DNA of 64,000 bases from a virus: IMG/VR virus record IMGVR_UViG_3300021142_000004. One strand, written 5' to 3'. Under the pieces are notes generated by a model that searched no databases, was not told where the DNA came from, and saw only the letters and a list, made by a program, of their open reading frames with translations. Positions 19,047 to 45,743 of this stretch are shown piece after piece. How positions within the stretch are numbered: the first letter of the stretch is position 1; each line of letters begins with the position of its first letter. The translations under genes were made by a program, and so were the position numbers.

Positions 19047-19686
19047 TATTTTATTTTTTTATTGTACAAATTTATTTTTTATAAATCTAAAAAATCTGAA
19101 TACCAATTCACCTAAATAAAATCCACCAAAAATTATTGAAACTATTGTCTCAACAATAAGTGTATATGGATTATTAAAAAATGAATCACTATACCTATTA
19201 AAATCGGTTATTGTTGCAAATATTGTACCTAATGAAAGAAACATTATTGTCCATAACGTCAATTCAAAATAGGATAATCTTATAAAATAAAAATATTTTA
19301 CCATGTTTATTTTGTTTTATCAATTATTGTTATGTAGGGAAATTTACTAATAATTTCTGTTGCCCAAGATCTTGCTTCCTCATCACTATCGAAATACACT
19401 ATTTCCCTTAAAGGTTCTTTAGTTCCAACAGAATACCATACAGTAACATACGGTTTTTTCCATATTTCATTATTTTTTAAAATATAATAATCATAGTTAT
19501 TAATAATTTCAAAACTTTTAGGATATTCATCATCATCTTGTATCCAACCACCTTGAATCGTTTCGAATCTTTTTTTAAAGAAACCTTTTTTCACCTGATA
19601 AGTGTCTTTCCATTTATATGAAGTCTTAATACTATGTCTAATTTCAACTTCAAAAATTGTGTCTGATTTAATGTAATTTATTTTCA

Positions 19687-23475: not shown

Positions 23476-24990
23476 TTATCCTGCTTGTTCATCTTGTGAT
23501 TCATCTCTCAATTGTGGACGTTCTATGGTAATATTTGTTGTAATCCAACCTGATCTTCCAAGTCTGTCACTCATTTCTGTTAGAAAATTATTAACTGATT
23601 CCTCAACATCACCATCAATTTCTCCCACCATTTCTTCACCATAATCTTCTGCCACCATATCTTCACCAGCTTCTGGCATTGGTTCAGCTTCAACACCATA
23701 GTCTTCTTCTTCATCTTCTCTTGATTCCATTTCAGAAATAAAATCTCGGTCAACATATTCTTCTTGTTGATGTTGTTCTTCCAATTGTCTCATTTGAGAA
23801 ATAAATTCACTCTCAACATCTTCATTTGCTTCTTGAATTCGATCCACTTCAAGATTATGAATATATTCTTGTCGTCTAGCAATTGCATCAACAAGATCGG
23901 CAACTCTTAATCTAGTCGGTTGTGGTTGATCTACAGGTCTATCTTCAACATCATCAGTCATTAACTCCCTAACACGTCTTGTTCTAACATTGTTAGTTAA
24001 ATCATTAATACGTTGTGCTAGTCTACCAAATCTATCATTTTCTACTCCATGAGCAAGTTCACCATAATTTATATCAGGTAACATACCAGGAACTACCTCT
24101 CCAGCAAGTTCTTGTTCTTCTTCATTAATGATTGTTTCACTTATACCAATTGTTCTTCTTTTCTTAAAAATTTCCTCTTCTTTTGGTACTTGAACTTTAT
24201 TTCTTTTTGCATAAACTTCCAAGTTAGTATAAGGATTGTTATTAATTTCCTCCATTAATATTGATTTAATATAATCAGGTAATCCCGATTCCATTGAATC
24301 AATTCTAACATCTTTCTGATCCCAAAATGAAAATTCTCTTGCAACACCACCAAGACTATTACTATCACTATGTTTTAATGACCTAAATACAGCAACTTTA
24401 ACACCGGTTTTTTTATTAATAAAATAAATTAAAATACCATTCTTAGTGTACTTATCAAAGTATGTTCTTTCATTATGTGTTGTACACCATTTGGTATTAG
24501 AACCATACTTTCTTGATGATTCATATGTTAATGGTCTTAATACTAACCATTCTTCATCGTCAGAAATTTTCTGTACTTGTTTCTCCATTTCTTTCTCAAT
24601 ATGTCTAGATTCAGATTTGGAAACCTCGTTCTTTAATTCATCAATTGATGTGTATGTTAATACATCATTTTTTTCAATTAAACCACGTTCATTTAAATTA
24701 ACAAACTTTTGGAATAATTTTATATCTTCAGACATATTTTCAGTAATCAAATAATGAATATATGTTGAAAACGATGTTAACATATCAACCTCTGATTGTG
24801 GTATATCAAAAATTTTTGAAATCAATGTACCATAAACATTATTTTTTTTACCACCTATTTTTTTATTCTTGTAAAGTTTACAAAATAATTCAAGGTACTT
24901 TGCTTTATTTGTTTTTGTAACAAAACTCATAACATCAACCAAACTGATGTTGTACTCCGGATTAGACTTTAGTTGTTTGTAATTTGACAT
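23476..24990 (-). CDS. paralog family C protein with long acidic tail
   Basis: PLTYE.S..YG.NTKWC.T shared with 45072-45743. Confidence 0.8.
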   Translation of the reverse strand: MSNYKQLKSNPEYNISLVDVMSFVTKTNKAKYLELFCKLYKNKKIGGKKNNVYGTLISKIFDIPQSEVDMLTSFSTYIHYLITENMSEDIKLFQKFVNLNERGLIEKNDVLTYTSIDELKNEVSKSESRHIEKEMEKQVQKISDDEEWLVLRPLTYESSRKYGSNTKWCTTHNERTYFDKYTKNGILIYFINKKTGVKVAVFRSLKHSDSNSLGGVAREFSFWDQKDVRIDSMESGLPDYIKSILMEEINNNPYTNLEVYAKRNKVQVPKEEEIFKKRRTIGISETIINEEEQELAGEVVPGMLPDINYGELAHGVENDRFGRLAQRINDLTNNVRTRRVRELMTDDVEDRPVDQPQPTRLRVADLVDAIARRQEYIHNLEVDRIQEANEDVESEFISQMRQLEEQHQQEEYVDRDFISEMESREDEEEDYGVEAEPMPEAGEDMVAEDYGEEMVGEIDGDVEESVNNFLTEMSDRLGRSGWITTNITIERPQLRDESQDEQAG

Positions 24991-44114: not shown

Positions 44115-44779
44115 TTATCCAACGACATTTTTCATATCATCACTATGATGGTCAAATAAAAGATCAGATTTTATTTCTCTTTTATCCATTAAGGGAATAA
44201 TTTCTGTTTTTAAATTGTAAGGTCTGAATTCTGGATGACCATCCATACCAACATCCATTTTTTTACCTTTACCAAATTTCAAATGATTTGGTAAATGTAC
44301 ATGTCCATGAAGATGAATATGACCTTTATTTAAACCATCCCATGAACTAATTGGGTAATGCATAACTTTGAAGTTACGACCACAGTATTGAAAAACTTTA
44401 TAATGAGATGTTGAAAGAAATAAATCTCCACAATTTTCCCTATTATTTTCAATATGATGGTCATGATTACCATAAATCAAATGAATATTTTTACAATTTA
44501 ATCTCCTATGAAATTCAAAGATTTGTTCAATCCCACCAAATGACCAGTCTCCCAAACAGATTAAAATATCATCCTGACCTGCAACATTATTAATATTATT
44601 AACAATCGCATTATTCATTTCATCGAGATTTTGAAAATCCCTTGTTTGTTCTATTGGTATTTTTCCATCTTCAGTTCTCCAATTGGTTACACCACGACAT
44701 ATATTTTTATGTGAAAAGTGTGTTAAGTGTCCGAGGTAATCCAAACATTGGAATCCTCGGACAAAATAATTTTATTCAT
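44115..44779 (-). CDS. calcineurin-like metallophosphoesterase with a 5-nt coding gap
   Basis: MNK...WITSDT* then, in another frame, HFSH.NI...LGD...GNHD...HYP...HGHVH...DVG.D. Confidence 0.85.
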
Positions 44780-44817
44780 TAATTTAATTTTATTTATACA
44801 AATATAAGTTATTATTT

Positions 44818-45081
44818 TTAATTTTCAAAATAATTTTTTATATAATTTTTTTTGTCATACCTTTCACCATTTTGATATGAAATGATTAAACAAAGACATT
44901 TTTCTTGTTCATAATAATCAATATCCCATTTTTTTATTCTTTCAAATAAATCATTTAATATAATTATACTATCATTATTTTTTCTACTTTTTTTAATATT
45001 TTCACTATGAGTTATTAATTGACAATTAGTAGGGTGTCTTACAATTTCCGGAAACACTTTTTCTGAAAATCCTATTTTGTG
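44818..45081 (-). pseudogene. C-terminal relic of an HNH endonuclease
   Basis: GF..KVFPEI.RHP.NCQ.ITHSEN..K with no N-terminus. Confidence 0.6.
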
Positions 45082-45743
45082 TTATATAATTGTTCTTTTG
45101 GTTTCTTCACTTCCTCAATGATTTTACCCATTACATCGAAAGGTATTGGTAACAACATTGGTGAAGTTTCCTCATCATCAGCCAACCAAGCTTGGATATT
45201 TTTTGGATCATTAAATTCTCTAGACACAGCGAATTTATCATTTGTTTTCTTACTTAAAATGAAGAAAATTCTATGACTATCTTGATAACGTTTGTAATGT
45301 GATTCTTGTGTTACACACCATTTGGTATTTGCACCATATGATTTAGATGCTTCATAACTCAATGGTGTTAAAACTAACCAATCCTCAGTTTCATAAAGTT
45401 TTGCAACTTCTTTCTCAAGACGCTTCAATTTAACTGCTTCGTCAGCTTTCTTAACTGCGATATCCAAATCCTCAAAAGACTTGTATTGAGTGATATCAAG
45501 TTTTTCCAAACGTTTTGCTTTGGAATGTTCTTCAAACAAACTAAGACATTCGGATTCTTTTTTTGTTAAGAAGTGAGAAGCTAACTCTCTTTTAACTTCA
45601 TCAATATTGACTTCTTTTTTAATTGACTTAATAATGAAGTCGGTGTACTTGTAAGTACTTGTTGGGTCTAAACTGACAATGATGTCTAAAAAAGAGACAT
45701 TTAAATCTGGATGTTGTTTACGAAGTTCATCAATACGTGCCAT
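45072..45743 (-). CDS. paralog family C protein
   Basis: PLSYEAS..YGANTKWC.T. Confidence 0.8.
   Translation of the reverse strand: MARIDELRKQHPDLNVSFLDIIVSLDPTSTYKYTDFIIKSIKKEVNIDEVKRELASHFLTKKESECLSLFEEHSKAKRLEKLDITQYKSFEDLDIAVKKADEAVKLKRLEKEVAKLYETEDWLVLTPLSYEASKSYGANTKWCVTQESHYKRYQDSHRIFFILSKKTNDKFAVSREFNDPKNIQAWLADDEETSPMLLPIPFDVMGKIIEEVKKPKEQLYNTK

Follow-up and report, generated by a model that had tools for sequence, protein, structure and literature searches.

A candidate five-nucleotide ribosomal hop over a stop codon in phage metallophosphoesterase genes, at the edge of a homing-endonuclease cassette

Utilised translational bypassing has, to our knowledge, been described in very few cases: those of T4 gene 60 and its relatives, the byp elements of yeast mitochondria, and a Streptomyces phage terminase. 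The byps of Magnusiomyces capitatus mitochondria (Lang 2014) reportedly comprise many natural gaps that are bypassed, are flanked by matched codons and are mobile. The gene 60 family has been treated in a paper that deals with topoisomerase genes only and contains no metallophosphoesterase (MPE) case (10.1101/2022.08.31.505936). For T4 gene 60 itself, pairing of the mRNA as it exits the ribosome has been proposed to drive forward bypassing (Wills et al., 10.1101/2024.12.09.627546). Hops of +5 and +6 were obtained in synthetic constructs in E. coli, in which matched codons flank a stop (Weiss, Dunn, Atkins, Gesteland 1987; reviewed in PMC5009743). A 2016 review of recoding describes such short stop-hops in constructs, with no natural case known, and notes that shorter counterparts of gene 60 have ‘long been presumed’ (PMC5009743). 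A search of the literature for work linking MPE with bypassing or frameshifting found nothing.

The locus described here lies in phage DNA from lake water. The window, by which we mean the whole stretch of 64,000 nucleotides that was analysed, is a gene-dense region transcribed from one strand, with genes for a helicase, an RNA ligase, an M23 peptidase and NT5C; no tRNA genes were found in it. On its minus strand, the part of an MPE gene that codes for the metal-binding DxH motif, SDTH, is split by a stop codon and two further bases (Table 1). The mRNA reads GAC ACU UAA CA CAC UUU, and the remainder of the enzyme (HFSHKNICRG ... GDWSFGG ... GNHD ... HGH) follows in the +2/-1 frame, down to position 44115. 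Omission of UAACA gives a product of 219 aa, which aligns with uninterrupted homologues free of gaps across ...VWITSDTHFSHKNICRG.... The junctions predicted for simple shifts are SDTLTH (-1) and SDTTH (+2), and the version chosen by gene callers is an ORF of 209 aa that begins at TTG 44744.

Table 1. Features of the interrupted MPE locus (coordinates are those of the window), with compensatory stems and layout examples from related cassettes.
Feature	Sequence	Position	Strand	Basis or detail
Whole inserted cassette: endonuclease stub, promoter region, new 5' end of MPE gene, hairpin, stop		44723..45073	(-)	comparison with L336
Start-less C-terminal stub of a homing-endonuclease-like gene, with HNH-like motif	...RHPTNCQLITHSENIKKS...	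44818..45081	(-)	homology to full-length upstream genes
Promoter-like box (TAnnTTTG type), 19 nt before ATG	TATATTTG	44799..44806	(-)	box count and spacing in window
ORF0, 18 codons, true N-terminus of enzyme	MNKIILSEDSNVWITSDT	44726..44779	(-)	opens with ATG 44779-44777; aligns with N-termini of uninterrupted homologues
Hairpin: outer stem (9 bp) plus small inner stem-loop	UGUCCGAGG / CCUCGGACA	44728..44763	(-)	folding, covariation, link to gap
Take-off codon (Thr18)	ACU	44726..44728	(-)	ACN in 53/53 cassettes: ACT 28, ACC 14, ACG 10, ACA 1
Coding gap	UAACA	44721..44725	(-)	stop UAA 44725-44723 overlaps landing codon ACA 44723-44721
Resume codon (His19) and remaining MPE gene including its stop	CAC ...	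44115..44720	(-)	open frame, catalytic motifs kept, dN/dS, PHROG score, fold
Compensatory stem, L338	GUCCGGCGUA / UACGUCGGAC			
Compensatory stem, L340	AUCCGAC / GUCGGAU			
Compensatory stem, L341	GUCCGC / GCGGAC			
Compensatory stem, L347	GUCCGCAA / UUGCGGAC			
Compensatory stem, L354	UCCGCGG / CCGCGGA			
Layout example, L081	GAT ACC TAA CT CAC			
Layout example, L083	GAC ACT TAG CT CAC			
Layout example, L084	GAC ACT TGA CT CAC			

ATG 44779 looks like a real gene start, because the box that precedes it is of a type that recurs, similarly spaced, ahead of many other genes of the window. The coding strand has 98 copies of TAnnTTTG, compared with about 50 in shuffles, and many start codons of the window have one 16-21 nt before them (examples are the boxes at 19074, 17719, 15507, 31058, 41514, 9095 and 44806). 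A sigma-70-like site at 44828-44801 matches at 10 of 12 positions. The box resembles what we take to be the -7 promoter element of the Bacteroidota type; together with the nearest cultured relatives, which are Flavobacterium and Cellulophaga phages, the boxes suggest a Bacteroidota host. An earlier note on this stretch of DNA had traced the frame from ATG 44779 to the TAA at 44725-44723 and found the remainder of the enzyme in another frame. It had also placed a promoter box above the ATG, recognised that a hop would rebuild SDTH in a product of 219 aa and that a -1 shift would insert residues into the motif, and described a strong hairpin at 44763-44728 that ends on the first take-off base and is built from GC-rich codons unusual here. 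All of these statements hold.

The 5 nt, which the earlier note had wanted to see confirmed in raw reads, are real DNA. A contig from an independent lake metagenome (X4, depth 17) spans 44600-44900 without indels, and the stretch is present in the sequencing runs of about 18 studies. Among the contigs compared, X4 is the only one that bridges the site cleanly, the X8 contig having about 20 nt on one side. The X2 contigs end exactly between 44728 and 44729, at the boundary of hairpin and take-off codon, and the X10 contigs end nearby; such ends could reflect population variants, or merely low depth.

By its motifs and modelled fold, the gene is predicted to encode a calcineurin-like MPE. The GD, GNHD and HGH motifs are invariant, and DxH is present only in the hop product. 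An AlphaFold model of this product (pLDDT 86, pTM 0.84) finds its best structural match in the MPE 1xm7 (E = 4e-9), followed by 1s3l, YfcE, Vps29, Mre11 and lambda phosphatase. In the model, a strand formed by residues 12-16 (VWITS) leads into D17-T18-H19, which occupies the place of motif I. The PHROG phosphoesterase score is 1e-35; Pfam scores fall below the gathering cut-off for the whole subfamily, and there the hop product does no better than the truncated ORF.

Most of 120 close homologues are uninterrupted proteins of 216-221 aa. Twelve of them have been called as ORFs of 208-212 aa whose start, (M/V/L)DYLG(H/Y)L(T/A)H, results from reading the W-I-T-S-D-T-stop region out of frame; their DNA has the layout of the window in other bases (L081, L083 and L084 in Table 1). 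IMG/VR and metagenomes were then scanned by pattern, and in all 53 distinct cassettes were obtained that share this layout: a hairpin, a Thr codon and a stop, with a Thr-like codon just ahead of that for His. In most cases the search pattern fixed either the hairpin's 3' arm or the C of the landing codon, and evidence on those two features comes only from smaller, unbiased sets. MPE subfamilies of very different kinds are represented, the HFGHxNIxxYCNRPF type among them, and the sources are gut, soil, sludge and freshwater samples. A stop follows the Thr codon directly in all 53 (TAA 28, TGA 15, TAG 10); as all three stops are used, it is apparently the stop as such that is selected. In the closest cultured relatives, Flavobacterium phage immuto and Cellulophaga phage phi17:2, the genes are uninterrupted. 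Searches of cultured-phage records gave no match to the region by blastn and chance matches only to short cassette queries, with no laboratory phage carrying a cassette among them. A scan of bacterial genome contigs with a loose pattern returned 120 rows, all of which were chance matches in GC-rich bacteria, and no true cassette.

Patterns of substitution indicate that the downstream frame is under purifying selection. Between the window and its nearest uninterrupted relatives, L335 and L336, dN/dS is 0.12 and 0.18, and the median among interrupted pairs is 0.17; the decay of this frame that the earlier note had named as grounds against a hop is not seen. The 46 complete downstream frames have no further breaks and contain GNH(D/E), although an open frame was required when they were selected, and the independent evidence is dN/dS.

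The gap is 5 nt long in 48 of the 53 cassettes, 6 nt in four and 9 nt in one, a second 9-nt case having been found later. The 6-nt gaps (TAGACT, TAGACC, TGAACA and TGAACT) and the 9-nt gaps (TAGTAAACA and TAGTGAACT) all end in ACN directly before CAY and all stand behind the same hairpin. These longer gaps are in frame, and if they were read through, DxH would gain 2-3 internal residues. Where the gap is 5 nt, the stop and the landing codon have one base in common, the last of the former and the first of the latter, so that the landing codon is ACN after TAA or TGA and GCN after TAG. The GCN landing codons thus appear to be forced by TAG, and with them a G-U pair to anticodon position 36 is still possible. 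Among 22 distinct cassettes found without any constraint on the gap, the landing codon is RCN in 21, where 16% C would be expected (p = 5e-16, for rows that are not phylogenetically independent). One cassette, L376 (ACC TAATT CAC), is the sole one to land on AUU and not on RCN; a GGU anticodon pairs with this codon only via two G-U pairs, and the site may be weak or decaying.

The hairpin is the predicted minimum-energy structure (z = -3.8 compared with shuffles), and it extends as far as the A with which the take-off codon ACU opens. The codons that form it are rare in the window, which has 27% G+C: TCG makes up 2.2% and TCC 5.6% of Ser codons, and ACC (13.5% of Thr), GAC (13.9% of Asp) and GAG (14.8% of Glu) are scarce as well. 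Only seven such stems exist on this strand of the 64 kb, and the one in the MPE gene has the highest G+C among them; in a scan of the window, it is also the only GC-rich stem with a stop directly after it. The AT-rich phage has three further intragenic stems of 10-15 bp, also fairly GC-rich, on the minus strand, at 29336-29296, 19833-19800 and 15317-15272. A role of the hairpin as a terminator was ruled out, there being no T-run and no terminator-like site.

Comparison of the 53 cassettes shows what is kept in this structure and what is free to vary. Each has an uninterrupted stem of 7-14 bp (median 9) whose 3' end is offset from the take-off codon by -1, 0 or +1 nt, and the length of the stem interior ranges from 5 to 44 nt. 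In searches made without a fixed 3' arm, compensatory changes appear at five stem positions (Table 1), which is the covariation, beside a conserved gap, that had been proposed as a check. The four basal pairs UCCG / CGGA are invariant. G-U pairs are common, with 18 at one stem position, which points to pairing of RNA and not of DNA. Depending on the gene, the 5' arm encodes S-E-G/V or F/V-R-G; because it is read in two different frames, it would be at the nucleic-acid level that the hairpin is conserved.

The hairpin appears to exist only together with the gap. In IMG/VR, a hairpin followed by an uninterrupted GAY-ACN-CAY gave 0 matches. Ten uninterrupted genes that do have ACC-TCG-GAY-ACN codons form best stems of just 3-6 bp, and 53 other uninterrupted relatives, used as controls, have a median best stem of 5 bp and varied Ser codons. 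We also considered the hairpin-plus-stop pattern in other genes of IMG/VR and rejected it, as the remaining matches are those of chance in GC-rich DNA. Several short-loop cassettes from other habitats have a Shine-Dalgarno-like motif 5' of the hairpin, which is absent in the window; in L105, L123, L156, L163, L372 and L376, AGGAGG or GGAG stands 3-8 nt before the hairpin's 5' base. In these six cassettes, formation of the stem would bring this motif close to the take-off and landing codons.

The origin of the gap can be read from the closest uninterrupted relatives, L335 and L336, which have the same gene order as the window. Homology to L336 runs in two blocks, 45800-45074 (92%) and 44722-44069 (86%), and between them 351 nt of the window stand in place of 71 nt of L336. 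As the homology resumes at 44722, the 3' border of the insert falls exactly at the stop codon. The stub within the insert is 59% identical to residues 249-326 of a 332-aa protein encoded upstream of the L175 cassette and 63% identical to the corresponding protein of L145, and it matches positions 203-245 of 246 in phrog_23051. Zinc ribbons, an HNH-like motif and NUMOD3 are present in the upstream proteins of this 320-aa class (those of L175, L145 and others); ahead of other cassettes stand endonuclease genes of the classic HNH or LAGLIDADG types. A quick tree of the 120 homologues requires 10 or more gains or losses to account for the 12 interrupted genes, with 7 or more of these events forced by well-supported branches, and each interrupted gene in it adjoins an uninterrupted sister. 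A second border mapping, of L188 against L397, gave no borders, the two phages being too different outside the gene. The locus thus has what is found in free-standing homing-endonuclease cassettes, namely an adjacent endonuclease gene or stub, precise replacement borders and a sporadic distribution. On these comparisons, the interruption is best described as the 3' margin of a mobile homing-endonuclease cassette, which has taken the place of the gene's original 5' end; in the window, the nuclease gene has apparently decayed to a stub and the hop module persists. The gap probably breaks the nuclease's target site, which would render the carrier immune. Just upstream of the cassette, a 223-aa protein (45072-45743) matches phrog_17056 and phrog_28193, as does a 504-aa protein at 23476-24990; the two may be paralogues.

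With the sequences compared here as our guide, we think it probable that a 5-nt hop of peptidyl-tRNA-Thr over the coding gap gives an intact S-D-T-H, and that the gap is the edge of a homing-endonuclease cassette. Such a hop is favoured because it alone would yield S-D-T-H across the 5-, 6- and 9-nt gaps. The locus has matched take-off and landing codons 5' of the resume codon, an adjacent stop, and a conserved, covarying structure, all of which are marks of bypassing. From the anatomy, conservation and covariation that we observe, and from the selection on the gene and the borders of the cassette, we infer the hop itself, a pulling role for the hairpin and a role in immunity, as follows. After initiating at AUG 44779, ribosomes would melt the hairpin and translate the first 18 codons. 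A pause would follow, in which the P site has peptidyl-tRNA-Thr on ACU and the A site has UAA, which is slow to decode. The tRNA would unpair, the mRNA would slip forward by 5 nt, and the anticodon would re-pair with ACA, which overlaps the last base of the stop; CAC (His) would be decoded next, giving the 219-aa enzyme with its motif intact. The hairpin directly behind the take-off codon would serve as the stimulator. With ACU in the P site, its 5' arm would already be outside the ribosome and its 3' arm still inside, occupying the exit channel and E site. As the stem refolds, with the basal pairs GUCCG + CGGAC closing last, it would pull the mRNA forward until the anticodon reaches the next Thr-like codon, and the five basal pairs would correspond to the five-base slide. 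In this way, the gap would destroy the nuclease target, and so provide immunity, while the hop would preserve the enzyme. The efficiency of the hop may be low without a nascent-peptide signal of the T4 gene 60 type. The earlier note had interpreted the site as a programmed 5-nt hop from ACU to ACA, stimulated by hairpin and stop, and the comparative data support this. Its suggestion that the hop is ‘possibly regulatory’ stands as one possible reading, to which immunity to the nuclease is at least as likely an alternative.

Several other explanations would account for part of these observations. Arithmetically, a 5-nt gap is a +2/-1 shift, and a +2 or -1 frameshift at ACU-UAA in which the tRNA does not re-pair specifically with the Thr codon downstream would give SDT-T-H or SDT-L-T-H. 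A stop in the A site and a nearby structure stimulate frameshifts too, and an inserted Thr or Ala would be tolerable in principle. Nonetheless, G-GAC-ACU-UAA has no slippery X-XXY-YYZ motif, the sequence expected for programmed -1/+1 frameshifting, and tRNA-Thr would be unable to re-pair at -1 (CAC) or +2 (UUA). DxxH or DxxxH occurs in no homologue, and the in-frame gaps of 6 and 9 nt, which have the same hairpin and take-off context, are beyond rescue by a frameshift. An upstream hairpin, moreover, favours forward and not -1 movement, as upstream attenuator and stimulator duplexes do, which counts further against a frameshift, and we regard this explanation as quite unlikely. A still smaller chance, and in our judgement a very slight one, attaches to the idea that the two frames do not make one protein, the gene being either a decaying pseudogene or the source of an N-terminally truncated enzyme made by re-initiation at a TTG, ATG or GTG of the downstream frame. 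The annotated 209-aa ORF, the M/V/L-DYLG... starts in relatives and the decay of the neighbouring nuclease gene are all in keeping with it. Yet the truncated product would be without the Asp of DxH, and in 21/53 cassettes the downstream frame offers, ahead of the His codon, no start codon at which re-initiation could occur. ORF0 retains homologous N-terminal sequence, the layout is conserved across subfamilies, and a pseudogene would not be expected to have purifying selection on its body and to be free of further breaks in 46 complete copies.

The remaining two explanations turn on the hairpin. As it is conserved and adjoins the site, and as the phage and its relatives have RNA ligase genes, the 5 nt might be removed or corrected in the RNA, either by hairpin-guided cleavage and religation by the phage RNA ligase or by editing. 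This would leave no role for the stop, which nevertheless always follows the Thr codon, and none for the Thr-like codon that always ends the gap. We also know of no mRNA splicing of this kind, over 5, 6 or 9 nt, in bacteria or phages, and consider RNA repair exceedingly improbable. Alternatively, the hop could be real at a low level from the stop and matched codons alone, and the main role of the hairpin could be a different one, as a DNA palindrome (for protection from the nuclease or transfer of the cassette), in mRNA stability, or as a brake on initiation. The hairpin belongs to the mobile cassette, the same hairpin is found beside nucleases of several families, and in the shortest forms of ORF0 it begins right after the start codon, all of which would suit such a role. 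Against this, its 3' end stays within 1 nt of the take-off codon in 53/53 cassettes even though the interior varies from 5 to 44 nt, the tolerated G-U pairs (18 at one position) fit RNA and not DNA pairing, and the hairpin is never found without the gap; a role of the hairpin apart from the hop is, we think, unlikely.

Returning to the hop of peptidyl-tRNA-Thr, we see strong comparative support for a form of translational bypassing. Most likely, the locus is a natural short stop-hop, of a kind seen before only in synthetic constructs, and if this is true, it would be the natural counterpart of the synthetic stop-hops of 1987. We lean, with moderate confidence, towards a broader reading: a portable minimal bypass module in which a hairpin reaches to the take-off codon, a stop follows, and a matching codon lies 5-9 nt further along. 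This module would work in different host groups and without a nascent-peptide signal, with mRNA refolding as the sole driver, and would let homing endonucleases colonise the most conserved DNA of a gene, which codes for its catalytic motif, without killing the gene. The family offers dozens of natural variants of a minimal hop, with three gap lengths, three stops, covarying stems and interiors of 5-44 nt. As such, it is a ready-made mutational series for asking whether refolding of mRNA behind the ribosome can drive forward sliding. For annotation, it means that genes of this kind are now called as truncated ORFs of 208-212 aa that are without the catalytic Asp. For the biology of selfish nuclease cassettes, it suggests that they can occupy catalytic-motif DNA at little cost to the host gene.

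How does this proposed hop compare with the systems described to date? As in T4 gene 60 and the MobA cassette (Huang 1988; Bonocora 2011; Manning & Atkins 10.1101/2022.08.31.505936), one polypeptide would be made from two ORFs, and a free-standing homing-endonuclease insert, which brings its own upstream coding copy, has the gap as its 3' terminus. The sporadic distribution and the decayed nuclease genes are likewise shared. T4 gene 60 also has a stop directly after the take-off codon, matched take-off and landing codons, and a 5' mRNA stem implicated in forward movement; the pulling by the hairpin that we propose matches the role that Wills et al. give to pairing of the exiting mRNA there. 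The differences are nonetheless considerable. T4 gene 60 encodes a topoisomerase large subunit and uses Gly GGA codons, whereas here the gene is an MPE and the codons are Thr ACN. The gap of gene 60 is 50 nt, or 20 nt in the shortest known clade, and not 5, 6 or 9 nt. In gene 60 the take-off stem-loop holds the stop, whereas here there is no structure in the gap and the sole structure is wholly upstream. The gap here has no Shine-Dalgarno sequence, and there is no nascent-peptide signal, for which an ORF0 of 18 codons, or about 10 in its shortest forms, would leave no room. The nucleases, too, are of other families than those of gene 60 and MobA, and the locus does not appear to belong to the homologous family of these two.

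The mitochondrial byps differ in having gaps of 27-55 nt with the hairpin inside the gap, in being read by mitochondrial ribosomes, and in having no link to homing endonucleases. With the +1 frameshifting of prfB and antizyme, the site shares a poorly decoded stop in the A site and an element just 5' of it that promote forward movement of the mRNA. Those frameshifts are by +1, with overlapping re-pairing and with Shine-Dalgarno pairing or a pseudoknot, whereas here the movement would be by +5, +6 or +9, to a codon that overlaps barely or not at all. It is the synthetic stop-hops that have the same geometry, in that the re-pairing codon overlaps the stop (+5) or follows it (+6). Those were low-level events in artificial constructs, whereas the candidate hop described here is natural and conserved, lies in a catalytic motif, and is accompanied by a covarying hairpin.
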